Source: an uncultured Verrucomicrobiae bacterium (GTDB lineage: Bacteria; Verrucomicrobiota; Verrucomicrobiia; Limisphaerales; Palsa-1400). From it: DNA of 64,000 bases. The notes beneath the pieces were generated by a model. That model was not told where the DNA came from and searched no databases. It was given only the letters and a program-made list of their open reading frames with translations. A program made the translations under genes and the position numbers. Numbering within the stretch: the first letter of the stretch is position 1; every line of letters begins with the position of its first letter. This document shows positions 1 through 21,631 of the stretch, in pieces. The stretch lies in the NCBI GenBank assembly GCA_963707025.1, contig CAVPOM010000005.1, positions 256,001 through 320,000 on the forward strand. Reading direction: 5' to 3'.

Positions 1-28
1 AACATCTTCAATCCGCCGGAGGCGCCGC

Positions 29-658: not shown

Positions 659-725
659 TCCACATGAAGACGGCCCTTCTTATCCGAAAAGAATTTGTCT
701 TCAGGAGTTGTCATAATAATTGAAA

Positions 726-1574: not shown

Positions 1575-1588
1575 ACCACAAACAGATT

Positions 1589-2518: not shown

Positions 2519-5500
2519 AAAACCGCGAGCGAATCCTTGTGGGCGCCGGGGTGCTTCTGGTGGCTCTTGGCGCTGCCATCGCTCTGGCTTTGTGGCACGT
2601 TTCCGCTCCAGACCTCATCCCACCTCCAACCGAGGGTGACATGCTGGCAATGGCGATCAGCAACAGGGCAAAACATGCCAAGGATTTTCAATACCTCCCC
2701 GACCAGTCAAACAAGGTCGAGCGCATTGATCCGTCGCGTCGAATTCGCCTTGCGGTCGGCTGGTTGGGACTGCCCGACGAAGCCCGGAACCAGGAAATCG
2801 GCGACCTGATCGTGGCGGAGTTGAGCGGTGCAAAAAACCTCGAACTGGTGGACCGCCAATCGCTCAACGCCGTCTTGCGGGAAAGTGAGTTAAGCCTCTC
2901 CGGTCTGGCCCGTGCCGCGGGCGCGGTGCGGGTGGGCAAATTATTGCGCGCCGACTGGTTTCTGATGGGCAGCAGTGCGGTGGTCAATGGCACCAACTGC
3001 ATCGTCGCGCGCATTGTTGACAGTCGCACTGGAACGATGCGGGATATCACGTTGCTGCCCAGCAAGAAGGAACCGAGAACCTTGGCCGGGGACCTGGCGG
3101 AATTTGTACGCCAGTGCCGGGCCAGCGCATCCAGTGCCCGGCCGCGTGTTTATGTCTCCATCGGGGAATTCGAGGACACGAGCATGAACAGCCATCAGAG
3201 CGGTTTCGGTGACCAATTGCGCGCCCATCTTGCCTCCGCGCTGCGGGCCAATACCAACGTGACTGTGTTGGAGAGGGATGGCTTGGAAAGCTTGTTGCAG
3301 GAAATGCGCCTTGACTTGGCGGGATTGACCGATGAGCAAACCACAAATCCGGAGCTCCAGATACAATCCGCTGTGTGGACAGTTTCGGGCTACTATCAGG
3401 CCTATGAAAAGGAGGGGCAAGACGTGGAACTGCTTTTGCATTTGGACCGGGCGTTCGGCCCCATCCGGGAATCAACCCTGCGCGGCACTGGAGAGGAGTT
3501 GTTTCATATCGCCGAAAAAACCATGGAAACAGCGGTGAACAATACGGCAGCGGCGGTGTTTGTCCCATCGCGCAGCCGGGAAATAAAAGAAGCGACAAAA
3601 ATGATGCTGGAAGGGACTGCTTATCAGCGAGGGATGGTCATGGGAAACCTCATCGGCCCCAATAGGTATAATTGGTACAGTCAATACGAAGCGGGAACGC
3701 AAGCGCAGAAACGGCACCGGCGCGAGGAGGGGCTGCGGGCCGCTCAAACAGTGCTGCTCTTGGATCCCACTAATCAGGTGGCAATGTTGTATGTGGGCGT
3801 TTATTTGCAGGATCCGCTGATAGATCGGGGTGAGGAGGCGGGGAAGTATTTCCAGGAAGCGGCGGATTTCCCGGTGGATAACCGGCTCAAAGCCGTCGCC
3901 ATGGGAGATCTGGCGGAGAGCTACGCAAGGTCTGATCCCGCCGAAGCCGTACGCGTGTTACAACGGGCCAGGGAACACTTTAAAACCAACGCCGAGTTCC
4001 TCTCAATTCTGGGTACAAGTGAATTGAACCGATCAATCCCAGCCGCAGCCTCGCCTGAAGACAACAGCCCCGACCGGGTGCGGCAGCTTGCCGAGCAACG
4101 CCTTTTCGCCCAGCTTCAGGACAATCAGGACAAGTGGATCAAATGGCAATCCTGGGCCTATCCGGATGGGTTCGTGGGAGCTTACGCCCGAACGTTCGGG
4201 AAGGACGATTTGGCCGGACTGAAAGACTACGAGGCGTTGCTCCCCACCCTGAAACAGAAATTCCCCGCCACCGCCCCGTATTTTGTGGCGTCCGCGTTCG
4301 CACGACAGACCAATTCGAATAATCCGTTTACGGCGGAATTTGAACAGATGGTCGCCTGGTGTTCGGAGCACCCTGACACAGTGATGTATCCCGACAGGTT
4401 CTTCGATTACGCCTTCGGCTACTGCTACTGGTGGTGTTTAGACCACAAGCAGAATGAGTTGGCGGCGCGGTTGATCGAGGCCAGAGGCCGTGAACTTGCC
4501 ACAGTCGCCCGCATGGGAACCTCAACGTCGAACCAGGGCTTCTCGGTGGTGGCGAGGTCTAATTTGGTGGCTCAAAGCACGCTGGGGACGCCCCGCACCA
4601 ATGTGCTCCAGCCCCTCGCCGTCCCTGTCACCAACGCCGCCACCCTGCTCTTGTCCCCACCCGATCGGATCAACCTGGCGAGAAGTTATTACCGGATGGG
4701 GCGGGCCAGGGACGCCTTGGATATAGTTGACAGTATTGCGGAGCGTCCAACGCCTACCGACAACAACCTCTACCCTTGGGAGCCTATGACAATCCCTGGA
4801 TTCACCAACGAGGCCAGGGCTTTCTTCAGACATGAACTCGGCTTGCCGCCAATCGTGGATGACAAATTGTTGACTTTGGGCGATCCGTGCTTGCGTCTCC
4901 AATCCCCTTTCGCCTTCTCCACCGATTCCCAAGGAATTTGGTTGGCCGCAGGCCCCACGCTTTTCCGGCTGGATTTCAACGCCGTGACCAACGATATCAT
5001 TCCAATACCCAACCGCGATGGCGCAAATGACACCGTCATCTGTGAAGGGGCGGAGCGGCTTTGGGTCGGCACCGACGGCAATGGAATCATCGAATTCGAT
5101 CAGGCGACCCATAAACGGCTCCGCCGCTGGACCGAACAGGACGGGCTTTATTCGGACCATATTTCGCGCCTGTGCCTGGACAAGGGCACGCTCTGGATCG
5201 GGTTCAGTCATCAAGGCAGAGGCGCCTTGGGCCGTTTGGATTTGGTGAGCGGACGCGCCAGTGCGTTCGCGCCGACGATGCGACCCGACACGGATAGAGC
5301 TATTGTTTACGGGATACACCTCTCCTATCAAGCCGAACCGCCGGGTGAAGCAATTACCGGCCTGGCCATGGGGCAACCGGGTGAATTGTACGTCGCGACG
5401 ACCTGGCAGGTGCTGCGATACCGGATTAAGGAAGATAAATGGGACGACGTGGAGCACATCAAAAACAATGGATTCGCTTGCGACGGTTTGCATTTGTTTG

Positions 5501-5838
5501 TCAACCAAGCAGACCGTCTTCGTAATACACCGCCACTGCACCTCAAGCCTGGAATCAACGGCGTCGCCGTGTTGACGCTGTCCGACGGGCATTGGGACCA
5601 ATTTGGACAACCGTCCGGGCTGCCCATGCCTGACTCGACGGCCACGGCTTTCAGCGGCAAAGACGTTTGGGTGGGCGGCAAGGGCTACCTCGGTGTCTTG
5701 GACTTGGAAAAAAAGACCATGCGCAAACGCGGTTACATGCAAGCCAACGCGGTGGATCATCTGGAGGTGGCAGGCGGCTTCCTCTGGGCGCAATTCGGCG
5801 GCGACCTCTATCGCTTTCCCCTCTCCGTCGCCAACTGA
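2515..5838 (+). CDS. Large membrane-anchored protein: two CsgG-like domains, TPR-like region, C-terminal beta-propeller
   Basis: LVDRQSLNAVLRESEL and VLERDGLESLLQEMRL repeats; LWVGTDGNG/LWIGF/VWVGG propeller blades; ATGA overlap with the previous gene. Confidence 0.75.
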   Translation: MKNRERILVGAGVLLVALGAAIALALWHVSAPDLIPPPTEGDMLAMAISNRAKHAKDFQYLPDQSNKVERIDPSRRIRLAVGWLGLPDEARNQEIGDLIVAELSGAKNLELVDRQSLNAVLRESELSLSGLARAAGAVRVGKLLRADWFLMGSSAVVNGTNCIVARIVDSRTGTMRDITLLPSKKEPRTLAGDLAEFVRQCRASASSARPRVYVSIGEFEDTSMNSHQSGFGDQLRAHLASALRANTNVTVLERDGLESLLQEMRLDLAGLTDEQTTNPELQIQSAVWTVSGYYQAYEKEGQDVELLLHLDRAFGPIRESTLRGTGEELFHIAEKTMETAVNNTAAAVFVPSRSREIKEATKMMLEGTAYQRGMVMGNLIGPNRYNWYSQYEAGTQAQKRHRREEGLRAAQTVLLLDPTNQVAMLYVGVYLQDPLIDRGEEAGKYFQEAADFPVDNRLKAVAMGDLAESYARSDPAEAVRVLQRAREHFKTNAEFLSILGTSELNRSIPAAASPEDNSPDRVRQLAEQRLFAQLQDNQDKWIKWQSWAYPDGFVGAYARTFGKDDLAGLKDYEALLPTLKQKFPATAPYFVASAFARQTNSNNPFTAEFEQMVAWCSEHPDTVMYPDRFFDYAFGYCYWWCLDHKQNELAARLIEARGRELATVARMGTSTSNQGFSVVARSNLVAQSTLGTPRTNVLQPLAVPVTNAATLLLSPPDRINLARSYYRMGRARDALDIVDSIAERPTPTDNNLYPWEPMTIPGFTNEARAFFRHELGLPPIVDDKLLTLGDPCLRLQSPFAFSTDSQGIWLAAGPTLFRLDFNAVTNDIIPIPNRDGANDTVICEGAERLWVGTDGNGIIEFDQATHKRLRRWTEQDGLYSDHISRLCLDKGTLWIGFSHQGRGALGRLDLVSGRASAFAPTMRPDTDRAIVYGIHLSYQAEPPGEAITGLAMGQPGELYVATTWQVLRYRIKEDKWDDVEHIKNNGFACDGLHLFVNQADRLRNTPPLHLKPGINGVAVLTLSDGHWDQFGQPSGLPMPDSTATAFSGKDVWVGGKGYLGVLDLEKKTMRKRGYMQANAVDHLEVAGGFLWAQFGGDLYRFPLSVAN

Positions 5839-5881
5839 CCGAAAAAAGTTTCAACAATCCGTAAACCAAGAAATGCGCGCT

Positions 5882-6538
5882 ATGACAAACCGATCCTGGT
5901 GTGCTGGGCTGGTGTTGCTCGTCGCGTTCGCCACAACTGCCTTGGCCCAGTCCAACGCCACGCCGGCGCGCCTCGCCATCCTGGCCGCCGACCGCGCGCT
6001 TGGCGTTGCGGATGACATGCTGACGGCCGCTTTCTCCAAGCGCGAGGGTGTCGTCCTGCTGGAACGGGCCGAGATCGAGAAAGTCTATCGCGAACAGCAA
6101 CTTTCCGCCGCCAACCAGGACCTCATCAAATTGGGGCAAATCCTCGGCGCAGATGGTCTGGCCCTGTTGCAAATCGTCACCGAGGGAACCAACCAATTCC
6201 TGCAATCCCGTCTCATCGCCGTCAAACCCGGCGTTGTTCTCGCCGAGTTCCGGTCTCCCTGGCCGTTGGAAGACCTGGCGCAATAGTCGGGCCTTGCCGC
6301 CAATGATTTTTCCCCGCTCCTTCCCAAACTGACCGTGCTGCCCAAGGACGCCGTGCCCCTTTCCGTTCTCAACCTTCGCTCCCCCTTACGCACCGCCGCC
6401 AGCCAGGAACTGGAGCGCGAACTGACCGTCCCGCTCATCCAGCGCCTCACCCGCGAGCGCAACGTCTGGTCTGCTTGCCGCCGTGAACCAGAGACCCCCG
6501 ATGATTCCTGCCGCCCCAACATCGTCCAGCGCGAATAA
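5882..6538 (+). pseudogene. Truncated third CsgG-like gene with internal TAG
   Basis: Signal peptide plus LLERAEIEKVYREQQL; TAG at 6284-6286; same frame continues (ORF 6335..6538) and appears to lose gene-like character after about 6470. Confidence 0.7.
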
Positions 6539-6671
6539 AACCTGGAGCGGCGGGTTTTTTACGAAATGCTGTCGCATGCCCGGGGCGTCACAAACGGACG
6601 AAGCCTGTCTGCTGGCGGAGGATGTGGACTGGAACACGCGCACCATCTGTTTTTTTCCTTCTCTGTCATTT

Positions 6672-9600
6672 TTAATGTTTGACTGACGAGACGGCGAGAG
6701 TCTCCGCCGCTGAATTGTTCCAACCGCCGCCCAGGGCCTTGATCAGTTGAACGGCGGCGATGAGGCGCTCGCCCGCAAGTTGGGCATTGCCGCGCTCGGC
6801 CTGCAGCGCGTCCCGGCTGGCGTCCACGACTTCAATATAGCTGACAATGCCCGACTGATAACGGTTAGTCGCGAGGCCAACCGCGCGGCGCGCGTTCATC
6901 ACCGCGCGCTGTTGGGCGGACGACTGATCCGCCAAATGACGAATGCCGGACAGGCTGTCCTCCACCTCGTTAAAGGCCACCAGCACTTGTTGCCGGTAAT
7001 TCGCCACCGACTCCTCGAAAACGGCCTGGGACCGATGGTAGTTCGCTTTGTTGCGGCCTCCGGCAAAAATCGGCAGGGAAAGACTTGGACCGATGGACCA
7101 GGTTCGGCTGTTCCAGTTGAACAAGGTGTCCACATCGGCGCTCAAGTAGCCGCCCGAACCAGTGAGCGTAAGCACGGGAAAAAACGCAGCTTTCGCCACA
7201 CCAATGCGGGCATTGGACGAGGCAAGCTGGCGTTCCGCCTGGGCGACATCCGGTCGTCGCTCCAGCAAATCGGAAGGCAGACCGGCGGGGATTTCAGGCG
7301 GTTGCGGGTTCCAGGCGCCCGCTGTTTCAGCAGCTACGTGAAACGAGGATGGATTACTGCCGGCCAAAATGGCGATGGCATTCTCCAATTCCGCGCGTTG
7401 TTGCGCGAGCGACGCGGCTTCAGCTTCCGTGGTGGCCAGTTCGGTTTCGGCGCGTGCAATGTCGAGATCGTTGCCGATGCCGCCGTTAAAACGGCTCTGC
7501 ACCAGCCCCACCTGCTCCTTGCGCAATTCAACGGTGCCGGTCACGGTGGCCAACTCGGCGTCGAGAGCGCGGAGCCTGAAATAATTCTGCGCAACGTCAG
7601 CCTGCAGGGTCAACAAAACGCTGCCGAATGCGGCGAGCGACGCTTGGGCATCGGCGCGGGCGCTTTCAAACCCGCGGCGCACACGGCCCCACAGATCAAT
7701 CTCGTAACTGAGGTCAAGCGGGGCCTGCCAAGTGTTCGCCGTCAAAGTGCCAAAGCTGGGTGATTGGTTCGGCGAGTAGCGCTGGCGGGCAAAGCTTGGA
7801 TCAAGACTCAAGCTCGGCAGCAAATCGCCCCTGGCCACGCGCGCCGTGGCACGGGCTTGATCCACCCGCGCAACGGCCGCTTTGAGGCTTTGGTTCGCGC
7901 GCATTGCCTGCAATTCCAAATCATTCAAATTGGTGTCGCCAAAGACCTCCCACCAATTGCCCTTCGGCACACCATCCAGCGGGCGGCCTTCCTTCCATTG
8001 CCCCAGTTTTGCGGCCTTATAGTTTTCGGGGACCGAGTTGGTCGGCGGCCGATAATCCGGGCCGATGGTCAGGCTTCCGGCTTGGGCGGAAGCGGGGGAA
8101 AACAACGCCGCGAGCAGAAGAATTCCCGCCACCGCACTTGGCGCGCCCAATGCGGGGCCGTTGGGTTCGTGACTGGCAATGACGGAAGGCTTCCGGGAAA
8201 CGCGCCTCATGAGGGTGAGATAGAAGACCGGTGTCAGAAACAGGCCGAACAACGTCACGCCGATCATCCCGGCAAAGACGGCCACGCCCATCGCCTGCCG
8301 CATCTCCGCGCCCGCGCCATGGGCCACCACTAGAGGGAAAACGCCCGCGATGAAGGCGATGGAGGTCATCAGAATGGGACGGAGACGAAGGCGGCTGGCC
8401 TCGACCGCCGCCTGGAACGCAGGAACACCTTCCTCATCCTGTTTGTGCCGGGCAAATTCGACAATGAGAATCGCGTTCTTGCAGGCCAGGCCGACCAGCA
8501 CGATCAGGCCGATTTGCGTGAAAATATTATTGTCACCGCCCTTGAGCCAGACGCCGCTGATGGCGAAGAGCAGGCACATCGGCACAATCAGGATGATGGC
8601 CAGTGGCAGACGCAAACTCTCGTATTGCGCCGCCAGGACCAGGAACACGAGCAGGATGCAGAGCGGATAAACATAAATGGCCGAATTGCCTGCCAGGATG
8701 CGCTGATAGGTCAAGTCCGTCCATTCGAAGGTCATCCCCTTGGCCAGACCGTCTCCCGCCAGCTTGGCGATCAACGCCTCCGCTTGGCCGGAACTGTAAC
8801 CGGCGGCGGGACCGCCATTGATTTCGGCGGCGGGATAGCCATTGTAACGCAGAGCGCGGTTGGGTCCGTGCGTTTCCGTCACCTTCACCAAGGCCCCCAA
8901 TGGCACCATCTGGCCTTTGTCGTTGCGCGTTTTCAGCCGCGTGATGTCCTCAGGGCGGTCGCGAAACTGCCCGTCGGCCTGGGCCACGACCTGATAAGTG
9001 CGCCCGAAACGATTGAAGTCATTAACATAAAGGGAACCGAGATAAATCTGCATGGTCTCGAACAAATTCTGGAGCTGCACGCCTTCCTGCTTGGCTTTGA
9101 TGCGGTCAATGTCCGCGTCCAGTTGGGGGACGTTGACGGTGAAGGTGGAAAACACGCTGGCCAGGCCGGGAGTCTGATAGCTTTTGCCAATAACGCCTTG
9201 AAGGCTCTGGTAGAGAGCGTCGTAGCCCAGGTCGGCGCGGTCTTCCACGTAGAGCTTGAATCCGCCGATGGTGCCCAAGCCATTCACGGGCGGCGGCGGC
9301 ACGGTCAGGACGAAAGCATCTTGAATGCCGGCGAACTGCTGATTTAATGTGGCAGCGATAGCCGGGCCACTGAGCTGGGACGACGTGCGTTCCTCAAACG
9401 GCTTCAAACAAAAAAAGACGATGCCTTCATTGGGTGACACGCTAAACCCGCTTATGCTCAACCCTGGGAAGGCGACGGCGCTTTCCACTCCGGGCTGCTT
9501 GAGCCCGATATCCGACATGCGGCGGATGACGGCTTCGGTGCGGTCGAGCGAAGCGGCGTCGGGCAATTGGGCGAAGGCCACCAGATATTGTTTGTCCTGC

Positions 9601-11340: not shown

Positions 11341-12519
11341 TCAACGTTGGGCGATCTTGACGGAGGAGCTTGCGGCCACTTGTGCCTGCGGCGTCACCGG
11401 CATCCCCGGCCGGATGCGTTCCATTCCGTTGACGATGATCTTTTCGCCCGGCAGCAAGCCGGAGCGGACGATGCGCCTGCCTTCCACCGCCGGGCCGAGC
11501 TTCACGGCCGTGTAAGCGACGGTGTTGCTGGCGGTGAGTGTCAATACATATTTCTGCGCCTGATCAGTCCCGATGGCCCGTTCGGACACCAGCAACGCCG
11601 CATGCCGCTCGCTCAGAGGAACCCGGATGCGCGCAAACAATCCCGGCATAATCCGCCCGTCCTCGTTGGAAAACACCGCGCGCAGCAGAATGCTGCCGGT
11701 GTTGGGGTCCACGCGGTTGTCGAACGACTCAATGTGCCCGCGGTGCGGGAAGCCCGTTTCGTCGGCGAGTTGCAGCTCGATGGGGATCTGGCCCTTGCCG
11801 TTGGTCTCCATTTTTCCAGCCTGGACAACCGCGTTGAATTTCAGCAGCGAATCCTCGTCCACGTCCGCATAAACGTATACGGGATTCACCGAAACCAGGG
11901 TCGTCAACAGAGAGGCCGATCCCGGACCGCCACTGACGTAATTGCCTTCGGTCAGCAAGGCGCGGCTGACACGGCCATCAATGGGCGCGCGCACCTGCGT
12001 GTAATCCAGGTCCAGCTTGGCCGAGTCGCGCGCAGCTTGCGCGGCGAGCAACGCAGCCTTGGCCTCCTGAAAACGCGCCACGCGTGCGTCGGATTCCTCG
12101 GTGGAAATGGCTTTGTTGGCCAGCAAGTCAGAAGCCCGGCCGGCCTCGCGCTTTGCGTTTTCCAACAGTACGCTGGCGCGGTCGGCTTCCGCCTCCAGGT
12201 TGTTGAAGGCGGCCTGATGCCAACGCGGGTCAATCACAAAAAGCACGTCGCCCTTCTTCACCAATTGGCCCGATTGAAACCGCACTTCCTGGATGTAGCC
12301 AGAAACACGCGGCCGAACCTCGACCGATTCCACAGGTTCGGTGCGTCCCGTGAATTCGTCCCACTCCACCAGTTCCCTTTGCTCGACCGGCGCCACCGTC
12401 ACTGTGGGCGGTGGCGGTTGTTGTGGCGCGGCATTTGCGCCGCAACCCGTGAGGAGGATGGCCACAAATCCAACGACCGGAACGGCCAGGGCGAAAACGA
12501 AAACATTTTTTGTTGTCAT
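11341..12519 (-). CDS. RND periplasmic adaptor (MFP), lipoprotein
   Basis: LLTGC lipobox; VEVRPRVSGYI, GQLVKKGDVLFVIDP, APIDGRV motifs. Confidence 0.93.
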   Translation of the reverse strand: MTTKNVFVFALAVPVVGFVAILLTGCGANAAPQQPPPPTVTVAPVEQRELVEWDEFTGRTEPVESVEVRPRVSGYIQEVRFQSGQLVKKGDVLFVIDPRWHQAAFNNLEAEADRASVLLENAKREAGRASDLLANKAISTEESDARVARFQEAKAALLAAQAARDSAKLDLDYTQVRAPIDGRVSRALLTEGNYVSGGPGSASLLTTLVSVNPVYVYADVDEDSLLKFNAVVQAGKMETNGKGQIPIELQLADETGFPHRGHIESFDNRVDPNTGSILLRAVFSNEDGRIMPGLFARIRVPLSERHAALLVSERAIGTDQAQKYVLTLTASNTVAYTAVKLGPAVEGRRIVRSGLLPGEKIIVNGMERIRPGMPVTPQAQVAASSSVKIAQR

Positions 12520-12567
12520 AGTATTTTTGGGTTTGAGATTCGGGATCAAGTGCGAATGCCGTCAGGC

Positions 12568-12903
12568 TCAGGCCGCAAGCGTGAAAGGCTCCAACCTGCG
12601 CAAGGAATGCTGGTGAGCGGTCCAAGCAGCCGAGCTTTGCACCTTTTCTTCCGCGAGCACCGGCAACAGCAGCAAGGGCTCAGGCGTCAGGGACACCAAA
12701 GCGTACGCTTCATTGACCGCCTGATAAACTAGCCGCGCCGGCACGCCGGCGTATTCCGAGGTGAACTTTCTCACCAAAGCAGATTTGAGTTTATCCGCCT
12801 TGGATCTGGGGAACAGTGGCTTGAAGGGATTCGCGCTTTTCGCAGGCGTGTTTTCGATTAGTAACTGAACTGACTGGTCAATTCTTTTTTGGATAGTTTT
12901 CAT
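12568..12903 (-). CDS. Small hypothetical protein between tetR and the MFP gene
   Basis: 111-aa ORF co-oriented in operon. Confidence 0.55.
   Translation of the reverse strand: MKTIQKRIDQSVQLLIENTPAKSANPFKPLFPRSKADKLKSALVRKFTSEYAGVPARLVYQAVNEAYALVSLTPEPLLLLPVLAEEKVQSSAAWTAHQHSLRRLEPFTLAA
12868..12881. promoter_or_regulatory. Putative TetR operator, copy 2
   Basis: AACTGACTGGTCAA; same palindrome as at 13595-13608. Confidence 0.55.
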
Positions 12904-12937
12904 GCGTGTCTTTCTTTCTTTGTTTACTTTAAATCTG

Positions 12938-13543
12938 TCAGGCTGCGACTGCCTTGGCTCCGAGTAAATTCATGACGGTGGCTTCCAAATTCTCCAAAAC
13001 TTTCAAGTCATTTTGCACCCTGGCTTCGACCATCATTCCACAGAGTAATGACTGCAAAGTGACCGACGCGGCCACGGGATCTTTCACCGTGACAGAGCCT
13101 TCGCGGATGGCATCCGCGATCGCGCTCTCGACATATTTCCTGCTCGCATTCATCAGATGCTCGCTCTTGGCGCGGATTCTCTCATCCAGGGTGGCAAGTT
13201 CGCTTCCCACACTCGTATAAGGGCAACCGCAAACACGTCCGTATTCCCCGGCCTTTTCCTTCTGGACCGCATAAATCATCCGGCAAAAATTCTGAATTCG
13301 TTCCAAAGGCGGCACCTGTGGCGAGAAGATGTGGTCCATCGCCGGACGCTTCTCCCTCCAGTGCTCTTCATAAGCCTCCACGACCAAATCCGTCTTGGAA
13401 GGAAAGAAATGATAGAAACTGCCCTTGTTGATTCCGGCGCGCTTGCAAATATCGTCCACGCTGACGGAACCGTAGCTGCTGTCCCAAATGAGCTCGAATC
13501 CCACTTGCAGCAACTTTTCTTTCGTTTCACATGTCTTTTTCAT
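12938..13543 (-). CDS. TetR/AcrR family regulator
   Basis: TKEKLLQVG...SVDDICKRAGINKGSFYHFFPSKTDL HTH; ATG at 13543. Confidence 0.92.
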   Translation of the reverse strand: MKKTCETKEKLLQVGFELIWDSSYGSVSVDDICKRAGINKGSFYHFFPSKTDLVVEAYEEHWREKRPAMDHIFSPQVPPLERIQNFCRMIYAVQKEKAGEYGRVCGCPYTSVGSELATLDERIRAKSEHLMNASRKYVESAIADAIREGSVTVKDPVAASVTLQSLLCGMMVEARVQNDLKVLENLEATVMNLLGAKAVAA

Positions 13544-13594
13544 GTTCAGCACTGTTGGTCTGATTCTCCCAACACCGACACTCTCGCATAAATA

Positions 13595-13608
13595 AACTGA
13601 CCAGTCAA
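13595..13608. promoter_or_regulatory. Putative TetR operator, copy 1, overlapping a minus-strand -35 (TTGACT)
   Basis: AACTGACCAGTCAA palindrome about 50 bp upstream of tetR. Confidence 0.6.
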
Positions 13609-13708
13609 CTTTTTTCTGCAGAAATGTTGATTTTTTGGGCCAGAGTCTCGGAGGTAAGCCGTGACAGGTCTTTCTCGGCCGCCCGTTCAAGCAGGACGCG
13701 ATACATTG

Positions 13709-13894
13709 TTACCGGCGGTTGCGCTCGGCCAGGAATTCTTCCAGCGGGCGGCAATGCAGAGGCTTGCGGCGGGCGCGTTTGAATTTGGGGGACTCAAGCT
13801 GCGCCTCATCCCGCGACAAGTCACGCCACAGGCTCTCCATCACCCGAAGTTTCTCGGCGATGGTCATTTTCTCCAATGGCAATGTAATTTCCAT
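13709..13894 (-). pseudogene. Truncated duplicate of the addiction-module antitoxin
   Basis: MEITLPLEKMTIAEKLRVMESLWRDL nearly identical to 14608..14826, diverging after LESPK. Confidence 0.75.
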
Positions 13895-14009
13895 TTTCTT
13901 TTCGATACCGCTGAACCGTCTAAATCTCGCGTGTCCTGGGGATGACGTCAATAGCGGGCAGGCAATTCTCGCCATTGCCAACACGGCCACAACCCAGGGG
14001 GGCGAGTGA
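13783..14009. repeat. 227-bp direct repeat, partner at 14715..14941
   Basis: Near-identical sequence at offset 932. Confidence 0.9.
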
Positions 14010-14054
14010 TGTCGGCATGGCGAGACTCCGTTCGAGCCGAAACTCGATCTCCTG

Positions 14055-14132
14055 GGGGAAAGTCACGTTTTGACACTCCCTGTCACAATGGGTCACGCAA
14101 TGGAAAATGGCGGGAGTGGCGGGGCTCGAACC
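14055..14132. repeat. att repeat (78 bp, partner 21502..21579), including the last 25 nt of tRNA-Asp at 14108..14132
   Basis: Direct repeat at offset 7447 with 4 mismatches. Confidence 0.92.
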
Positions 14133-14315
14133 TGCTACGAATCGTTGAATATCAAGGGTTTAGGTGGGGTGCCCTCACAAGGAGCCTCACAGAAGCCAGT
14201 CACACTGAGTCACGACCTGGCGCAAGTAGTCACGGCGTGGGATAAACTTTCCGCTCCGCTCAAGGCCGCAATCCTCGCCATTGTCGGCGCGGCGACAGTA
14301 AAGGAGGTTCAGTGA
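14133..14315 (+). other. Detached C-terminal tail of the integrase (in frame only in the excised attP form)
   Basis: Reads ...MENGGSGGART|CYESLN...DLAQVVTAWDKLSAPLKAAILAIV...Q* in the same register as the integrase across the att core. Confidence 0.65.
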
Positions 14316-14611
14316 CCAAGGCCCGCCAGCTTTTCCCGAATTGCCTGCGGATCACTCCGGCAGTCCAAGACAGCCCATACTCGGGCCGTCATGCCTTCTT
14401 GATCGTAATAGACGGCGTAGGGGAAACGCTCGGACAGCAGCCAATGGTAACCAAATTGCTTGGAATGAATTCCCGCGTAAAGGCGAAGCGATTCAATGTC
14501 CGAAAACAACGACTCCTGGAAATAATCTCCCAACCCTGCCTGCTGTCGTTCGTAAAAATCAAATCCGTTGGAGAGGTCATCCCGTGCCGACGGCAGAATA
14601 AGGATACTCAT
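14309..14611 (-). CDS. RelE/ParE family toxin
   Basis: ILPSARDDL...FYERQQAGLG...RFPYAVYY...VWAVLDCRSDP; ATGA overlap with antitoxin. Confidence 0.85.
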   Translation of the reverse strand: MSILILPSARDDLSNGFDFYERQQAGLGDYFQESLFSDIESLRLYAGIHSKQFGYHWLLSERFPYAVYYDQEGMTARVWAVLDCRSDPQAIREKLAGLGH

Positions 14612-14826
14612 TTCACCCGGTTGCGGAGTTGCGTTTTCGCTGTCTCCCAGTCCATGAAGGATTCCTTGCCCTGCTCCACTCGCGCGGCCCTCTCTCCGAG
14701 AACCTCGCCATGCCATTTGGGAGATTCAAGCTGCTCCTCATCCCGCGTCAAGTCGCGCCAGAGGCTCTCCATCACCCGAAGTTTCTCGGCGATGGTCATT
14801 TTCTCCAATGGCAATGTAATTTCCAT
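14608..14826 (-). CDS. Addiction-module antitoxin component
   Basis: 72 aa; EKLRVMESLWRDL...SPKWHGEVLGER...DWETAK; directly upstream of the toxin. Confidence 0.85.
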   Translation of the reverse strand: MEITLPLEKMTIAEKLRVMESLWRDLTRDEEQLESPKWHGEVLGERAARVEQGKESFMDWETAKTQLRNRVK

Positions 14827-14937
14827 TTTCTTTTCGATACCGCTGAACCGCCTAAATCTCGCGTGTCCTGGAGATGATGTCAATAGCGGGCAGGCAATTC
14901 TCGCCATTGCCAACACGGCCACGGACAAGGGGGGCCA

Positions 14938-15652
14938 GTGACACCGGAGCGGCACGGCAGCGAGATAAAGCGAGCAGAACCGGACAGCGAGCACCACTGC
15001 TCGCCGGTTCTGCGGCCGTACGCGGTGACAACTGGCGACAGCGAGAGGCGGCGGGGTGGTGCCCAGCGCCACCCGCCGCCTCCGCTGGGCTTGTCTAAAG
15101 CGCATATTTCGGCGCGACAACGAAAAGGAAGCGTGACCTGTTACCGTGGTGCCAGCCTGATTCAGGTGCGCCTCCGTGGGGATGTGGCGGCGGGAAACAC
15201 GAGCGGTTGCGGCCCGCGTGGTGAAATTGTCGAGTTCACCCCGGCTTCGCGTCGGCGGATGCTGGAACTGCTGGCGAAAGTGGAACAGGCGGCGGTGCCT
15301 CTCGCCTTCACCCTGACCTAAGCGTTACGTTGCGAAAAAGGAGGAAATGCCGGTGATGGAACAAAAGCCGGGCCGGTATTGGGGTGTGATTGGCCGGGAA
15401 CACCTGCCATTTGGGAAACGGGAAGATCGGGAAGTCACGGGAGACCAGGCGGTGAAACTGCGGAGGGCCATGCGGCGTTACCGTGTGGCGAACACCCCGC
15501 CGGAGAAGCGGAAATATCTGCGGAAGAGCCAACTGTGGTCGGAAGATTTTACGGCCAAGCTGTTTTGCAACGTCGAGTTCTGGATGGAACGTCTGCCGAA
15601 ATTGATCGGCCTTTATGAGAATACCGCAATTGTGATTCCGAATTCCGCATGA
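14938..15652 (+). pseudogene. Rolling-circle (HUH) replication initiator with internal deletion
   Basis: RGEIVEFTPASRRRML...FTLT (motif I) abuts out-of-frame KRYVAKK (motif III YxxK) and GRYWG; HUH motif missing. Confidence 0.7.
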
Positions 15653-15760
15653 CCCTTTCACGGAGCCAAGAGAGAACCAGAATTCAAAAAGTGAGAACTG
15701 AGGCTTGCACATACCCACTGTTCCTTGACATCTGTGACTTTTGAGTGCAGGCTGGAAGCC

Positions 15761-16276
15761 ATGAGTGATTATACTTCTTTATGGCCGATTTTGGGCGGCG
15801 GTGCAGTCGGCTTTCTAAGCAGCTTAGGAACATCGCTGATTTCAGAAACGAGAAGGCGTGAGGCCGAGAGATTAAGCCTTACGGGAGCAATCGTTGGTGA
15901 AGTATCGGCGCTCATCGATATTTCCGAGCGCCGCAATTACATTGAGGGTCTTCGTGAATTGATAAGCCGAGCGAAAGCCAACAAGGATGCACCAGACAAA
16001 AGTGTCTGGTACCATTTCTCCGTGCGCCGCAATCCATTTCCGGTGTACGATGCTAATCTTACGCGCATCGGTATTCTTCGCGATCCGTTACCAAGGCATA
16101 TCGCTCGTTTCTATGCAATGTCTTCATCAATTCTTGAGGACATCGCCGATATGAGAGAGGGTAAGATGCAGCGCGGTCGCGATGAATCAATCCACTGCCT
16201 TGAGGAACTTCTTAAACTTTTTGAAGACACACTTGTTTTGGGGCGAAAAATCGTTTCGGACGGCCATAGTCCCTAA
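15761..16276 (+). CDS. Hypothetical cargo protein with N-terminal hydrophobic segment
   Basis: 171-aa ORF, lower GC, TTGACA at 15725. Confidence 0.65.
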   Translation: MSDYTSLWPILGGGAVGFLSSLGTSLISETRRREAERLSLTGAIVGEVSALIDISERRNYIEGLRELISRAKANKDAPDKSVWYHFSVRRNPFPVYDANLTRIGILRDPLPRHIARFYAMSSSILEDIADMREGKMQRGRDESIHCLEELLKLFEDTLVLGRKIVSDGHSP

Positions 16277-16334
16277 AGTCTTCAAATAAATATACAAAAG
16301 CTGATTGAAGGAACATCGGGGTCATAGGGAACAT

Positions 16335-16400
16335 CGGGGTCACATCTAAACATTCTACATTGGGGCGCGACGAAATGTAGAATGTTTAGATTTGACACCG
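16335..16400. repeat. 27-bp inverted repeat (REP-like or bidirectional terminator)
   Basis: CGGGGTCACATCTAAACATTCTACATT / AATGTAGAATGTTTAGATTTGACACCG between convergent genes. Confidence 0.8.
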
Positions 16401-16745
16401 TTTCACTTTTGGCCTTGAAGGCGTTTCTGAATTTGTGCCGATAGTTGAGCGGCTTCTGCCAGTGCTCTCTTATATTTATTTTCAAGCCCAGAGCCGTCTT
16501 CTGATGGTGCCAGTCGTTGTAATTGTTCCATAAGTGCATCGCATTTCGATTTTGCTGTGGCAAGTGAAGCCCTCAGCGATGCCATATCATCCCCCCCCGT
16601 TAGACAAACAAGTGATTCACAGTGACGTGCCAATGTTCGCAGAATGTGATGGTAGGTCTCCAATCTTTGAGCTGGACCCCTATTTTTAGACCACAGGTAA
16701 GTTTCGATTTTTGCCGGTTTGCTGTAGATAAGAAAGAGCAGACTT

Positions 16746-17036
16746 ATGAAAGCAAAACGGAAAAGACACAGTGCGGCCTTCAAGGCCAAAGTGGGATTCG
16801 AAGCCCTGGTGGGGCTGAAGACGGTCGCGCAATTGGCGCGAGAGTATGCGGTGCATCCGGCGCAGGTCACGCAGTGGCGGGCGACGATTCGGGATCACAT
16901 GCCCGAATTGTTTGAGCCCGGGCAACCCCGCACGGAGGATCAGGAACAGTTGATTGCCCAACTGCATGAGAAGATTGGCCAACTGACGGTGGACTTGGAC
17001 TGGCTTAAAAAAAAGTCCAGGCAACTGGGGCTTTAA
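16746..17036 (+). CDS. IS3 OrfA
   Basis: RKRHSAAFKAKV HTH; A8G slippery site at 17007-17015. Confidence 0.92.
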   Translation: MKAKRKRHSAAFKAKVGFEALVGLKTVAQLAREYAVHPAQVTQWRATIRDHMPELFEPGQPRTEDQEQLIAQLHEKIGQLTVDLDWLKKKSRQLGL

Positions 17037-17923
17037 CATGTTTAATCGCTCCCGATCCGCAGCTCAGCGTGCGGCGCCAGTGCGAGCTGCTGGCGGTGTG
17101 CCGTGGCAGTTATTATTACCAGTGCTGTCCGGAGACAGAGGAGAACCTGGCGCTGATGCGGCGGTTGGACCAGATGCATTTGGACCACCCGGTTTATGGC
17201 AGCCGCAAACTGACCGTGCTGTTGCGCCGGGAGGGTTTGACCATCAATCGCAAACGGGTGGTGCGGCTGCTGCGGTTGATGGGGATCGAGGCGATTTACG
17301 CCAAGCCCAAGACGAGTCTGCGGGAGATGGGGCACCAGATTTATCCGTATCTGTTACGCAATTTGGCAGTGACGGGACCGGATCAGGTTTGGTGTTCGGA
17401 CATTACGTATGTGCCTATGGCAACTGGGTTTATGTATTTGGTGGCGGTGATGGATTGGTGGAGTCGTTACGTGCTGGGATGGCGCTTGAGCAACACGTTG
17501 GAGGCGGACTTTTGTGTGGACGCTTGGGAGGCGGCGTTGCGGGCGGGGCGTCAGGCGCCGTTGATTTCCAATACCGACCAGGGATCGCAGTTCACCTCCC
17601 CGATGTTTATCGATGCGGTGGAATCGGCGGGGGTGGACGTGAGCATGGACGGACGGGGTCGCTGGATGGACAACCGGTTTATCGAGCGGCTGTGGCGGAG
17701 CGCCAAGTATGAGGACATTTATTTGCAAGACTATGGCGACGGGTTGGCGGCAGGGCGCGGACTGGGCCGGTGGTTTGACGGCTACAACCGGGAACGACCG
17801 CACCAGGCGTTGGGCTATGCGACGCCGGCGGACGCGTATTTTGATCCCGGCACGCATGGAGCCCAACCGGCCAAATGGGAAGCGATGCAACCTGCCAGAG
17901 GCAGGAGCGATCGCAGCACTTGA
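17015..17923 (+). CDS. IS3 OrfB DDE transposase (-1 frameshift fusion)
   Basis: WCSDITY, NTDQGSQFT, DNRFIERLWRS motifs; frame open from the slippery site. Confidence 0.92.
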   Translation, partial: VQATGALTCLIAPDPQLSVRRQCELLAVCRGSYYYQCCPETEENLALMRRLDQMHLDHPVYGSRKLTVLLRREGLTINRKRVVRLLRLMGIEAIYAKPKTSLREMGHQIYPYLLRNLAVTGPDQVWCSDITYVPMATGFMYLVAVMDWWSRYVLGWRLSNTLEADFCVDAWEAALRAGRQAPLISNTDQGSQFTSPMFIDAVESAGVDVSMDGRGRWMDNRFIERLWRSAKYEDIYLQDYGDGLAAGRGLGRWFDGYNRERPHQALGYATPADAYFDPGTHGAQPAKWEAMQPARGRSDRST

Positions 17924-17949
17924 CAGAGAGGCAGGCGGCAGGAAAAGGC

Positions 17950-18070
17950 TTGAAATCAGACCGCCTGCGGCGGTAGAGTTGAGAACCCTAAGAAAACGGA
18001 GAGGGAGGACGGGCAGTGCTCCGCATCGCTCGTTCTCTCTTTCGAAAGGGTTTTGAAACACGGAATGAAC
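17950..18070 (+). ncRNA. Candidate promoter plus structured RNA in the IS3 3' non-coding region
   Basis: TTGAAA-N18-TAGAGT followed by a long hairpin; conserved in IS3 copy B. Confidence 0.4.
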
Positions 18071-18614
18071 AGTAGTCAACTACAATTAGTAATGACAGCA
18101 ATCGGCAAAAGTCGCGCTTATTTCATGCGCTCCGTGGTCTAAAGGATGGGGTCCACCTCACTTTTCGGGGTTACAAAAATAGCATCGCGTATCTGATTCT
18201 TGAGTGGTTCCGCAAAGAAGCGAAAGATGCGTCTTTTCGTCTCCTTGCAAAAGATAGAGAAGGGAAGATCGGCATCAATTATTCCGTCCTGAAAATACTT
18301 AAATGGGGTGTGTTTGGCGTTCTTTATTTTCTGTTCAAACCTCGACAACTCAGCCTGGGTCAGTTTGTTAAATGGTGGAGGTATTTCTAAAGCCTGTGGA
18401 GCAACGCATTGCAATACTCTGGACAAGGCAGTTGGACGCAACTTCAAATTGTGTCCCCTCCACCGCGTTTCAAAATATGCCAATTCTACAAAGCATCTAG
18501 CGGTGGTGGCCGCGCTCGCCTCATCCACCGGCAGACCTTCAAACAATTTATCGAAAGATTGTTCAACTTGGCTTTTGTCCATAATAATCCTGCTGGTGAA
18601 TCTTGCCTCGTGAG

Positions 18615-19043
18615 TTATTGAAAATGTATGGCTTCGCCTCTATACACTGCATCCTGTGACGGATTAGTAAAACCAAAGGCCCCGCTCTTCGCAGCAATAG
18701 CCATTCCTTCCTGCCCACCCACGACATCTCCTCGATAGAGGATTAGAGCGTCTGCCCCAAGGTCGGCTGCTCGATACAGGAAGGCTTTAATGAACGCTGC
18801 TTCTTCGCCCGCGTGCCCCTCGACCGTCATCAGCGCCAGAACATCATATTTGCCCTCGATTTCAGCTTGAGGCGTGCCGTAAGGGGTTTGACTTTGGATC
18901 AATTTCACAGTTCCGTAAGGCTTTTTCGGCAGTGGGTTTGCAAAGGTGAGAACCTTAGTCCGGTTATAGTGCGGTGTGGGTTCGGTACCACAACCGAGGA
19001 AAACCGATAGGACAGCCAAAAAAAGAAGGAATGTTTTTCTCAT
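18615..19043 (-). CDS. Hypothetical lipoprotein
   Basis: MRKTFLLFLAVLSVFLGC lipobox; ATG at 19043. Confidence 0.7.
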   Translation of the reverse strand: MRKTFLLFLAVLSVFLGCGTEPTPHYNRTKVLTFANPLPKKPYGTVKLIQSQTPYGTPQAEIEGKYDVLALMTVEGHAGEEAAFIKAFLYRAADLGADALILYRGDVVGGQEGMAIAAKSGAFGFTNPSQDAVYRGEAIHFQ

Positions 19044-19440
19044 GGTTTCACTCTGGAATGCCCTATGGGCTTTGTCAATATCCATTGACACGACGCGCGA
19101 AGAAGTCGAGGTGATTGTGAAGTTCGTCGTCGCCTTGAAAGTGAAAGTGAAAGGGTCAAGCCCGGAATTCGGAATTATGGTTCGAGCAGATTGTCCGAGA
19201 AAAGCGACGAACCGGCACAAGCCCTCCCAGGTGGTGACGGCATTGCCGCCAGTGTTGCGAGGGCAGCCGGGGCTCAATCCTGGCAGCAATGACGGCACGA
19301 CCTAGCACTTGTCGGGGCTGGGTTTTCGCGTGTTGGCGTTCGGCTTGGCCCCCCTGCCTTGAGCAAGCCGAATGACGGCACGGGAAAACTCAGCGGGGAA
19401 ATCCCTTCCGGGTCTGTTTTGTCTCCCAAAAAGAAAGGCG

Positions 19441-19469
19441 TTGACATTACGAATACACTGTGTTAGGTT
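19441..19469 (+). promoter_or_regulatory. Sigma70 promoter of the HTH-xis-int operon, probably leaderless
   Basis: TTGACA-N17-TAGGTT with extended TG; ATG 7 nt after the -10. Confidence 0.65.
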
Positions 19470-19475
19470 TGCATT

Positions 19476-20099
19476 ATGAATAAAGAGTTTCCGTATTTGA
19501 ATGTTCCGGCCAGCTTGAAACCGATTGTCGGTGTCCCTGATCCTGAGACGCGAATTTATCGGCGCGAAGGGAGCGATGAGGAGTCCGGCCCGTGGTTTGA
19601 TGCCCTTTGTGAGCATTTCCCCGGTGAGGGCTTTATTTCCCCCGGTGGCGTTGGGATGTACGCGCCCGTATCGCGGGCAGGGGTGTACAAAAGATTGAAA
19701 GAGGGCAACTTGACGGCGTTCTGTTTTCATGTCGTGAAGGCGGAGCGGTCGCTCTTCGGGTATCAAAAGAAGCTCAAAGAGCGCCCTTACGTTTATGTCG
19801 CGGTGAGCGAGTGCAAAGCCTGGGGCCAAGACCTGAGAGCGCGTCCAGATCGGAAAGAGGCGTATATCGAAGCTGCCGGGGGCGAGAAACCAGACGGGCA
19901 AGGTGAATTTCTGGACGAACCAAGAAAGGTCGCGGCGGCGGGAAAAATGAATCGAAAGGCTTTGAAGGAGATTGTCCGGGAAGTCTTCCAAGAAATGCTG
20001 GATGAGGATTTGCCGACATTTTCGCGGGCAAAAGCCCGGCGTGAGGTCGCGGCCAAAGCCAGGGCAAAACTGGACGGGAGGAACAAAAATGCAAAATGA
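19476..20099 (+). CDS. Hypothetical protein with possible HTH
   Basis: ISPGGVGMYAPVSRAGVYKRLKEG resembles an HTH; first gene of the operon. Confidence 0.65.
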   Translation: MNKEFPYLNVPASLKPIVGVPDPETRIYRREGSDEESGPWFDALCEHFPGEGFISPGGVGMYAPVSRAGVYKRLKEGNLTAFCFHVVKAERSLFGYQKKLKERPYVYVAVSECKAWGQDLRARPDRKEAYIEAAGGEKPDGQGEFLDEPRKVAAAGKMNRKALKEIVREVFQEMLDEDLPTFSRAKARREVAAKARAKLDGRNKNAK

Positions 20100-20331
20100 A
20101 GTTGAAACGAAATCGGACCGGGTTATGAGATTGCCAGAGATTGCGGTGAGCCTGGGCGGTCTGCTTCGATTGAGGGTCGCTGCCGCGCGGCTGGGGGTAA
20201 GCGTTCGCACGGTTTACCGGATTATCGCGGAAGGCGGATTAAAGCTGGTGCATATCCGTGGATGCGCCTGCATCTCGGAAAACGAGTTGGTCAACTATAT
20301 TGAGCGAAACACACAAAGGAGAACGGCATGA
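20089..20331 (+). CDS. Excisionase-like HTH protein
   Basis: LLRLRVAAARLGVSVRTVYRIIAEGGL; ATGA overlap with the integrase. Confidence 0.8.
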   Translation: MQNEVETKSDRVMRLPEIAVSLGGLLRLRVAAARLGVSVRTVYRIIAEGGLKLVHIRGCACISENELVNYIERNTQRRTA

Positions 20332-21612
20332 TTAACACCATTTTCAAACCCAGAGGTTCGCGGATATGGCGGTGGAAATTCCGGCAGTGCCCGGCAGACG
20401 GCAAAGTGCAAGACGTATCGCTCGGCACGTCTGACAAACAGGTGGCCGAAAAAATCAGGGGCGAGCGGTTGCGGGAAAAGGAGCATGAACGGGCCGGGTT
20501 TATCCCGCCAAAGGCCACAAGGGATGCGGCGCAACGCAATCTGGCGGACCATTTGCAAGACTTCCTGGGGGACATGCGGCGGCGCGGCAAGTCGGAAAAG
20601 TATCTGGCAAACCTTGAATTTCGGGTTGGCCAGGCTGACGGCGGATTGCGGCTGGAACACGGCAAAAGACGTGTCGGCGGATTCATTTCAAGCCTGGATG
20701 CGCGGGCGGCAGGAATTGAAGGACAAGACCGCAAACGACTATTTGGAAGCGGCACGGTGCTTTTTTAACTGGCTGGTGAAGCTCGGTCGCGTCGGTTCAA
20801 ACCCGCTGCTCTCGGTGGAAAAGGTGAAAACGAAGGGCGGCAAGGCGGATGAGGTTCGGGCATTCAGTGATGACGAAATGTTGCGACTGCTCGCGGTGGC
20901 TGGCGCTCGCAAGCCGGTTTATTTGATGGCGGTGCATACGGGTTTGCGGAGATCGGAACTGGCGGCGCTCAAGTGGGATGATTTGCACTTGGATGCGGTA
21001 ACACCCTTCGTCAAGGTTCGGGCGTCAACAACCAAGAATGGCAAACCGGCGGACATGCGTTTGCTGCCTGAACTGGCGGCGGCGCTCGGCGAATTCAAAA
21101 CCAGTGGGACGCCTGGCAATGCGCTTGTTTTTACCGGCATTCCACGGATTGAGAGGTTTTACAGGGATTTGAAGAAGGCCGGGATTCCGCCCCAGGATGC
21201 ACATGGACGCAAGGCGGTGTTTCATTCGCTGCGTCATACCTTCGGGACCAACTTGGCGCGGGGCGGGGTCGCCAGCCGTGTTGCAATGGCATTGATGCGG
21301 CACAGTGACCGGCGGCTGACCGATAAAATTTACACTGACGAAAACTTGCTCGGCACTTGGTCGGCATTCGACAGTCTGCCCAACTATGAAGAGCGAGCCT
21401 CACAAATAGCCTCACAGATTTTAGTCGCGGCGGGTCAGAACGTGTCACAGACTGTCGCAACGGGCGGCGGGTTGGACAGCAATAAAACCCTTGTGAACAA
21501 AGGGGAATGTCACGTTTTGACACTACCTGTCACAACGGGTCACGCAATGGAGAATGGCGGGAGTGGCGGGGCTCGAACCCGTAACCTCTGCCGTGACAGG
21601 GCAGCGCTCTAA
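20328..21612 (+). pseudogene. Tyrosine integrase with a frameshift near 20630
   Basis: N-terminus in ORF 20328, catalytic part in ORF 20485 (HTGLRRSEL, FHSLRHTF, MRH, IY); ORF runs antisense into the tRNA. Confidence 0.88.
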
Positions 21613-21631
21613 CCAATTGAGCTACACCCCC
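21555..21631 (-). tRNA. tRNA-Asp(GTC)
   Basis: 77-nt cloverleaf GGGGGTGTAGCTCAATTGGTTAGAGCGCTGCCCTGTCACGGCAG...TTCGAGC...CCA. Confidence 0.97.

Follow-up and report, generated by a model that had tools for sequence, protein, structure and literature searches.

The 64-kb window analysed here, i.e. the whole stretch of contig CAVPOM010000005.1 under study, belongs to a soil Verrucomicrobiota metagenome-assembled genome (MAG; 88% complete, 18 contigs) and contains a small integrative element inserted at a tRNA-Asp gene. This element is probably a decayed representative of a large and so far undescribed family of small Verrucomicrobiota integrative elements, which carry their attachment (att) site inside the 3' part of the integrase gene and swap the C-terminal tail of the enzyme. 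Integration cuts the integrase open reading frame (ORF) at the att core and leaves a form of ~427 aa ending in a few tRNA-encoded residues, and the junction of a circle or a tandem restores a ~480-aa integrase with its tail. According to the frame, homologue and codon tests presented below, the position of att within the integrase gene is far beyond chance. No earlier description of the element family was found in full-text literature searches.

The ends of the element are marked by a 78-nt direct repeat (14055-14132 versus 21502-21579, 95% identical). Its last 27 nt are identical in both copies, cover the 3' end of the tRNA-Asp(GTC), the sole tRNA of the window, and form the att core (Table 1). 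All four mismatches of the repeat fall outside this core. The 51 nt to its left (14055-14105) lie outside the crossover region; they are the leftover 3' end of an integrase from an older tandem copy. From core to core the element measures 7447 nt, and ~5.95 kb once the 1493-bp IS3-family insertion and one copy of its 3-bp target duplication (CTT) are subtracted. The ~6 kb given in an earlier sequence-only reading of this stretch hold for the element without the insertion, not for its present length.

The ORF 20485-21612 matches the tyrosine integrase family PF00589 (E 5e-17, 62.5 bits versus a cut-off of 27.1), passes through the right core and terminates with GGSGGARTRNLCRDRAAL, its tRNA-encoded tail (RNLCRDRAAL) comprising 10 codons. 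At the left core the integrase frame continues from 14133 for 60 codons, CYESLN...AILAIVGAATVKEVQ, up to a stop at 14313-14315; the complete extension from the left core reads CYESLNIKGLGGVPSQGASQKPVTLSHDLAQVVTAWDKLSAPLKAAILAIVGAATVKEVQ, followed by the stop. Putative catalytic H-x-x-R and Tyr motifs are readable in the window ORF and in its homologues (HSLRHTF, KIYTDE), and the core begins a median of 76 codons past the catalytic Tyr (87 homologues). The sequence-only reading had described the passage of the ORF through the duplicated tRNA-Asp 3' end with its RNLCRDRAAL ending and the 60 codons at the other att site, and had supposed that the catalytic domain stays whole in both states while only the C-terminus changes; all three statements are borne out.

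A search with the integrase protein retrieved 901 proteins at E <= 0.001, the best 120 of which were examined. The integrated form with the ...CRDRAAL ending, mostly 427 aa long, accounts for 108 of these 120, and two, P0066 (480 aa, 70.2 bits to PF00589) and P0062, carry the long tail in frame after the core; five possess other sequence after the core and five have no core at their end. The concern that homologous integrases might stop before att is not confirmed, with 108 reading through the core and two bearing the tail. Among longer proteins, a search with the tail only gave 27 matches, and in all 20 examined the pattern SQxxSQ...DLxQVVTAWxKLxAPLKAAILAIV is present, its second part (DLxQVVTAWxKLxAPLKAAILAIV) being the conserved tail motif. 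Four of the 20 (P0131, P0132, P0134 and P0143, all partial) fuse an integrase C-terminus to the tail, and the other 16 are read-through ORFs at attL with unrelated N-termini, one of them a 656-aa host protein (P0128). The search for full-length integrases with the tail motif, proposed along with the sequence-only reading, has in this way produced P0066, P0062 and four partial fusions. The peptide preceding the tail is the antisense of the tRNA 3' end, GGSGGARTR for tRNA-Asp and GERGIRTP, GFESPS or ERQDLN for other targets; of 129 tails in the loci retrieved by their tail, 107 share their ORF with a recognisable tRNA-antisense peptide. At one locus (L148) integrase, tail and Rep start are contiguous.

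Three further integrases of the source genome, 39-43% identical, each have a tail on the same strand 6.5-8.8 kb upstream. Exact repeats of 19-31 nt mark the ends of these elements, situated at tRNA-Pro, at tRNA-Gly and at one tRNA cut by a contig end. In all four source-genome elements, the frame in which the integrase passes the core leads into the tail at the other copy. The integrase was also matched in 15 of 150 other genomes of the same order, from which 18 loci were taken: 11 are without a second att copy within reach, the repeat of L192 is not the core, and in the remaining six clean loci (tRNA-Asp, tRNA-Lys three times, tRNA-Ser and tRNA-Gly) the integrase frame runs into a tail-like motif at the left copy every time, be it the motif itself or a diverged form such as VAAAWPRLSASIRAAILALV. 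Conservation of frame across att, another check suggested with the sequence-only reading, is complete in both sets (4/4 and 6/6). The same swap of a long for a short C-terminus is found in the three other source-genome elements and the six integrase-anchored loci, and the tail motif persists in integrases that are only 39-48% identical and have different cores. The 23-codon motif (112 distinct sequences) has a nucleotide diversity of 0.13, 0.08 and 0.39 at the first, second and third codon position. The pN/pS ratio (nonsynonymous to synonymous polymorphism) of the same sequences is 0.22 in the tail frame versus 1.49 and 2.32 in the other frames, values that include an inflated coding constraint inside two pattern stretches, the loci having been retrieved with back-translated protein patterns. 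A tail in random frames and free of coding constraint, the other outcome that had been considered, does not agree with an in-frame tail at such a ratio.

The AlphaFold2 prediction for P0066 (72-row alignment) gives an integrase body with a predicted local distance difference test (pLDDT) score >90, a linker (residues 365-444) <40 and two tail helices (446-456 and 459-479) at ~87. In this model the att site sits in DNA encoding a disordered linker, and a structured two-helix module comes after it. A complex prediction of the integrase body (1-365) with the tail (425-480) scored 0.00 and favours neither reading. The N-terminus of the integrase is modelled as a three-stranded sheet plus a helix; PF13356, the N-terminal arm-type DNA-binding domain, matches weakly and below its cut-off (E 0.048, 14.2 bits). 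The best solved-structure match of the integrase is chain A of 5vfz, 'Gp33' (E 1.3e-8), which we take to be the Brujita integrase. No match to the tail was obtained in a sequence search of the PDB.

Short repeats occupy both arms of the putative attP, all in one orientation (Table 1). The spacings within the P' arm are 13, 12, 10 and 20 nt. GTCACR occurs in six copies in 14062-14234 and in four copies in 21444-21544, all on the plus strand and spaced 10 or 20 nt; over both strands of the entire window its 44 copies equal the chance level. Among 102 distinct P' arms, TCACR has a mean of 1.95 per arm versus 0.14 in opposite orientation and 0.26 in a downstream control, and, counted from the VV(T)AW codons, the sites keep fixed positions (-51, -39, -26, -16, -6 and +4). 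Nine P arms of tRNA-Asp type have a mean of 3.9 versus 0.44 in opposite orientation. The Gln codon of the conserved (S/T)Q dipeptides is CAA in 231 and CAG in 8 cases, against a crude background of 403 CAA and 622 CAG in the long ORFs of the window. The phased TCACR repeats are probably the arm-type sites of attP, embedded in coding sequence, and codon and repeat statistics together indicate that the tail region is under both coding and DNA-level constraint. The attP would then consist of the tRNA 3'-end core and flanking arms with phased TCACR repeats, placed within linker-coding DNA.

The junction of the tail with the following gene was surveyed in 113 tails with at least 400 nt downstream. 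In 54 of them the tail stop lies inside an xTGA whose ATG, GTG or TTG begins an ORF of 60 aa or more (ATGA 36, GTGA 17, TTGA 1). In the subfamily of the window element this next gene is a putative rolling-circle (HUH) Rep. These overlapping ORFs form a cluster of 27 (one inspected member is a 77-aa ORF), a cluster of 14 Rep-like proteins and smaller groups; several different Rep types are reached by ORFs starting from ATGA or GTGA. Large ORFs starting at most 700 nt from the tail stop comprise 37 distinct sequences; of the 24 scanned, 13 match PF23343 (Replication-associated protein ORF2/G2P), eight of them above the gathering cut-off, and nine of these 13 begin at the overlap. Two next-gene Reps gave weak RepSA matches (PF20199, E 1e-4 to 4e-4). 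The intact Rep of L002 (443 aa), in which motif I (FTLTYP), the HUH motif (HYHLLV) and the Tyr motif (YAGKRY) are readable, scores 26.3 bits against PF23343 with a cut-off of 27.8, and its family has 4007 representatives at E <= 0.001. In other subfamilies, the ~95-aa ORFs that start at the overlap matched no Pfam family, and a Pfam scan of 14 small ORFs downstream of tails yielded only one nucleotidyltransferase. A hairpin with the outer stem GCAGAACCGG/CCGGTTCTGC starts 32 nt past the tail stop in seven loci (including L013, L024, L076 and L128); its nine sequence variants show compensatory changes, and it falls within the 5' portion of the long Rep ORF. Candidate roles of this conserved hairpin are a rolling-circle origin and an insulating terminator. 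A second hairpin (15038-15085) is GC-rich with a DNA fold z of -6.35.

The window copy itself is, judged by its lesions, dead, and the device no longer works here. The true integrase start is 20328, and the first ~100 codons lie in a different frame from 20485-21612: compared with intact homologues of 427 aa, a single additional C at 20630/20631 causes a frameshift, and the matches of the first 106 residues and of the remainder to P0001, a homologue of 427 aa, are in separate frames. The Rep retains motif I only; ~499 nt found in L002 (11290-11790) are absent at a break at 15320, and the HYHLLV and YAGKRY motifs are gone. The IS3 insertion encodes an orfA with a helix-turn-helix (HTH) domain and an orfB with an rve transposase (PF01527, PF13276, PF00665, PF13683); one metagenome contig of a relative is free of it. 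A 626-bp cassette on the opposite strand, a candidate type II toxin-antitoxin pair, separates the tail (ending at 14315) from the Rep ORF (14938). Its antitoxin matches PF09720 (Unstab_antitox; E 8e-16, 58.3 bits), and the putative toxin, overlapping the antitoxin by ATGA, found no family in Pfam, NCBIfam or PHROGs. The cassette is bracketed by 49-nt copies of the tail end (14268-14316 and 14894-14942, 76% identical), the second of which ends in GTGA at the longest Rep ORF, in line with the tail-end copy noted by the sequence-only reading at the Rep start; related tails end in ...ANTATxKGGx. A third 49-nt copy (13962-14010) lies in an older remnant, of which 13783-14009 is 94% identical to 14715-14941. 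The cassette was apparently inserted precisely where tail and Rep meet, an arrangement common to L002, L086 and L087, and because it lies between the tail-end copies the present tail no longer abuts Rep. Likewise, the ORF 14070-14315 is a fossil of a fused junction, because 14055-14105 is the 3' end of the older integrase. Contigs of four metagenome runs aligned to the window give fragmentary cover, the best sharing 0.30 of the sampled words. Contig joints leading from the 3' region of int into the tail region were considered as circles and rejected, being repeated or similar sequence of <95% likeness.

That the tail is conserved solely as DNA, i.e. as the P' arm of attP, with an incidentally open frame and an integrase that functionally ends near the core, would account for the phasing of TCACR at fixed arm positions, for the preference of CAA (231) over CAG (8) and for the second Val codon of VVTAW (GTC), which is near-invariant at its third position (diversity 0.02). 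The most conserved stretch of the tail (AWxKLxAPLKAAILAI), however, lies beyond the last repeat, and there third positions vary by 0.2-0.7 and first and second positions hardly at all. A pN/pS of 0.22 in the tail frame versus >1 elsewhere, the maintenance of the motif across 39-48% identical integrases with different cores, the two confidently predicted helices and the stop/start overlap in 54 of 113 tails also count against a DNA-only tail, which we regard as very unlikely. A separate small gene that merely abuts att and is expressed alone in the integrated state would suit the gene callers, which call ORFs of 70-130 aa at the tail (most database entries are short and stand-alone), the nearest ESM Atlas clusters of the tail, which are unnamed hypothetical proteins of Planctomycetota with 68-73 aa, and the in-frame ATG with which the core starts in two source-genome elements (MERAKG, MERVKG). 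Yet the N-termini of stand-alone tail ORFs are unrelated chromosomal read-through, e.g. in the 656-aa P0128, no conserved start is seen among tail ORFs, their frame is the integrase frame in 10 of 10 clean cases, and fused integrase-tail proteins exist; an independent gene is accordingly given little probability.

The sequence-only reading went further and proposed that the full switch is functional in the window element, excision placing Rep behind a promoter at 19441 and so turning replication on. The order of the circle (xis, int, tail, Rep) and the GTGA with a G-rich, Shine-Dalgarno-like relic at 14938 agree with this. Opposed to it are a window Rep without HUH and Tyr motifs, a frameshifted integrase and the 626-bp opposite cassette between tail and Rep. 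The promoter likewise found no support: the TTGACA at 19441-19446 is followed by a poor -10 (TAGGTT), the scan called no plus-strand site there, and its total of five sites is at chance level (3.6 +/- 2.3 expected); the promoter and terminator scan of the window found nothing above chance. A functional switch in the window copy appears already largely refuted by these features, and hardly any likelihood is left to it. The proposed joining of tail and Rep stands for relatives (overlaps in 54 of 113 tails, PF23343 in 13 of 24 ORFs) and falls for the window element with its cassette, Rep loss and integrase frameshift.

Several points weigh against the preferred reading, namely att inside the integrase gene, a swapped tail and a tail-Rep connection. 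No overlapping start is present in 59 of the 113 tails, and in many elements the next gene is a ~95-aa ORF without assigned function instead of Rep. The overlapping GTG is a candidate Rep start only, because homology begins later, alignments to Rep homologues starting no earlier than about residue 58-140 of the long ORF, and because strong hairpins lie within that unaligned 5' stretch. Conservation of the tail is partly DNA-level (SQ..SQ and V-T codons), besides the retrieval effect on pN/pS given above. Fused forms are rare (one of 90 strict-motif tails in loci) and could stem from tandem arrays such as L002 instead of circles. Finally, the integrase frameshift in this 88%-complete MAG could be an assembly error; the aligned metagenome contigs give no cover there.

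In the circular form, the order xis, int-tail, rep would form a chain of 4-nt overlaps. Rep may be efficiently translated only once excision rebuilds this chain, which would tie replication to the excised state. Excision would thereby act as a sensor, only the circle rebuilding an uninterrupted xis-int(long)-rep chain, so that long integrase and Rep are made together only when the element is excised; we consider this possible but doubtful. The long and the short integrase may differ in activity or directionality, by analogy with phage Mx8, with integration favoured by the long form and excision requiring no more than the short form plus the excisionase. If excision does act as such a sensor, it would amount to a translation-level integrate/replicate switch in a very abundant Verrucomicrobiota family with many tRNA targets, the whole attP, arms included, being hidden in linker coding sequence.

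The myxophage Mx8 has its attP within int, and integration gives a new 3' end without inactivating the enzyme, as stated in passages of PMC6070905 and PMC4383910; the principle was already published in 1996 (Tojo et al., as cited by PMC6070905). The Int in the Mx8 GenBank record has 533 aa; a tRNA-3'-end-like stretch covers residues 412-421, with 112 more residues beyond it. As in Mx8, where IntP becomes the prophage IntX/IntR, the att core lies in the integrase ORF downstream of the codon for the catalytic Tyr, and integration exchanges a long C-terminal segment for a short host-encoded one, here 60 versus 10 codons. The integration target of Mx8 is likewise a tRNA-Asp gene. In contrast to Mx8, a 49.5-kb tailed phage, the present element is small and plasmid-like with a Rep, its tRNA-like core is read in a different phase, the tail stop overlaps the start of the next gene, and many different tRNAs are used across the family. 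A BLASTP comparison of P0066 with Mx8 Int detected no similarity (best E 0.10). The family would work like Mx8 without detectable relatedness, adding the coupling to Rep and the arm sites inside the ORF, as far as its sequences indicate.

Archaeal integrases of the SSV1/pTN3 type also have att within the integrase ORF, as PMC7253208 describes. They are split in two upon integration, whereas here integration exchanges only a linker and the tail and leaves the catalytic domain intact. In Tn916, according to passages of PMC11658703, replication and transfer genes are promoterless when integrated and expressed only after excision, across the joint, and they are insulated by a terminator close to the left end; a comparable insulating role is conceivable for the hairpins past the tail stop. 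The Tn916 link is transcriptional with no ORF across the joint, whereas here an ORF is rebuilt across att and overlaps the next start. The sequence-only reading named the archaeal and the mycobacteriophage precedents and was incomplete otherwise, Mx8 as a bacterial precedent of exactly this C-terminal swap and Tn916 having been missed. In ICEKp1 the int promoters are described as state-dependent. Small tRNA-integrating elements of actinomycetes such as pSAM2 hold rolling-circle Rep, excisionase and tyrosine integrase in one operon (PMC2440964). The pSAM2 element has its genes in the order rep-xis-int and its att outside them, whereas the family here has att in int; pSAM2 is conjugative (Tra), whereas no transfer gene was recognised in the element here. 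Mycobacteriophages with integration-dependent immunity (BPs/Brujita type) carry attP in a gene, and integration changes the C-terminus of its protein. The gene cut there is the repressor, and here it is the integrase.

A curiosity known from one myxophage would in this way extend to a large uncharacterised family, which is experimentally tractable. Its recombination site, including the arm repeats, would be written into a protein-coding disordered linker, and its gene overlaps would be confined to a single topological state. Such integrases will routinely be mis-annotated by gene callers and island finders, which will report proteins of 427 aa and, for the tails, orphan hypothetical proteins.

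Table 1. Features of the element in the window and related elements of the source genome
Feature	Position	Strand	Remarks
Remnant of older tandem copy	13783..14105		antitoxin fragment and tail-end copy, integrase 3' end 14055-14105
Left att core (attL side)	14106..14132		displaced copy of tRNA-Asp 3' end, identical to right core
Distal tail	14133..14315	+	60 codons in integrase frame: rest of linker, conserved two-helix module DLAQVVTAWDKLSAPLKAAILAIV, stop
P'-arm repeats, candidate arm-type sites in tail coding sequence	14174..14234	+	CTCACA 14174, 14187; GTCACR 14199, 14209, 14229
Toxin-antitoxin cassette	14309..14832	-	between two tail-end copies; antitoxin 14608-14832, putative toxin 14309-14611
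Relic of original tail end	14894..14942	+	AILAIANTATDKGGQ and stop, Shine-Dalgarno-like GGGGGG, GTGA overlap at start of longest Rep ORF
Rolling-circle Rep pseudogene	14938..15652	+	codons to FTLT (motif I) until 15320; C-terminal part in other frame from 15320
Two strong hairpins after tail-end relic	14971..15085		first 14971-15015 GCAGAACCGG...CCGGTTCTGC, second 15038-15085
IS3-family insertion sequence	16668..18160	+	1493 bp, 27-nt terminal inverted repeats, CTT 3-bp target duplication
Excisionase-type HTH gene	19972..20331	+	PF12728, TIGR01764; stop overlaps integrase ATG at 20328 (ATGA)
Tyrosine integrase, integrated form, pseudogene here	20328..21612	+	intact homologues 427 aa
P-arm repeats	21400..21544	+	TCACAA 21400, TCACAG 21412, GTCACA 21444, GTCACR 21509, 21529, 21539
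Right att core (attR side)	21553..21579		within integrase ORF and intact tRNA-Asp
tRNA-Asp (GTC), integration target	21555..21631	-	antisense encodes final residues of integrated-form integrase
Further source-genome elements	C2:~97500-104000, C13:~20-7540, C4:~63750-72450		integrase/tail pairs, 6.5-8.8 kb

At least 523 confirmed tail loci were found in a metagenome scan and 148 in a scan of species-representative genomes, most of them from peat and soil Verrucomicrobiota. A scan of IMG/VR returned one locus only, which lends no support to a viral nature, and a tblastn search of 50,697 phage records with the tail gave no match. Against plasmids the tail obtained only one weak match at chance level (E 0.2), and a profile search of ten element proteins against PHROGs matched no family. 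Tail contigs also occur in MAGs labelled Bifidobacteriaceae (L012, L048, L063, L065, L067 and L076), Saccharimonadales (L024) and with Acidobacteriota-type names (L010, L034 and L069); binning errors seem more likely than a wide host range as the origin of these labels.

Besides the features of Table 1, the element contains an ORF of 246 codons without assigned function on the minus strand, split by IS3 into 16403-16667 and 18164-18582. The adjoining ORF at 18615-19298, likewise on the minus strand, matches no family and carries a lipoprotein-like signal (...FLAVLSVFLGCG). Immediately to the left of the element remnants (11341-13690) are two minus-strand ORFs named from their translation only, one of TetR-regulator type (12938-13690) and one resembling an efflux adaptor (11341-12549). 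Further tail copies of the source genome are located at C6:820024, C6:496703 and C18:305210. Region 9999-17700 of L002 is a tandem array: after an intact element of 5.5 kb come another core, another tail and a degenerate Rep; the first integrase of the array ends in GGSGGARTYHEWN and a stop at a decayed attP-like junction. In L028 (9880-10135), L043 and L070, an intact tRNA-Ser lies directly upstream of the tail on the same strand. The tails of these three loci read the sense strand of the tRNA (...RGFESPSLRH...), and the orientation of the element relative to the tRNA is therefore opposite, with the tail beside the intact gene.

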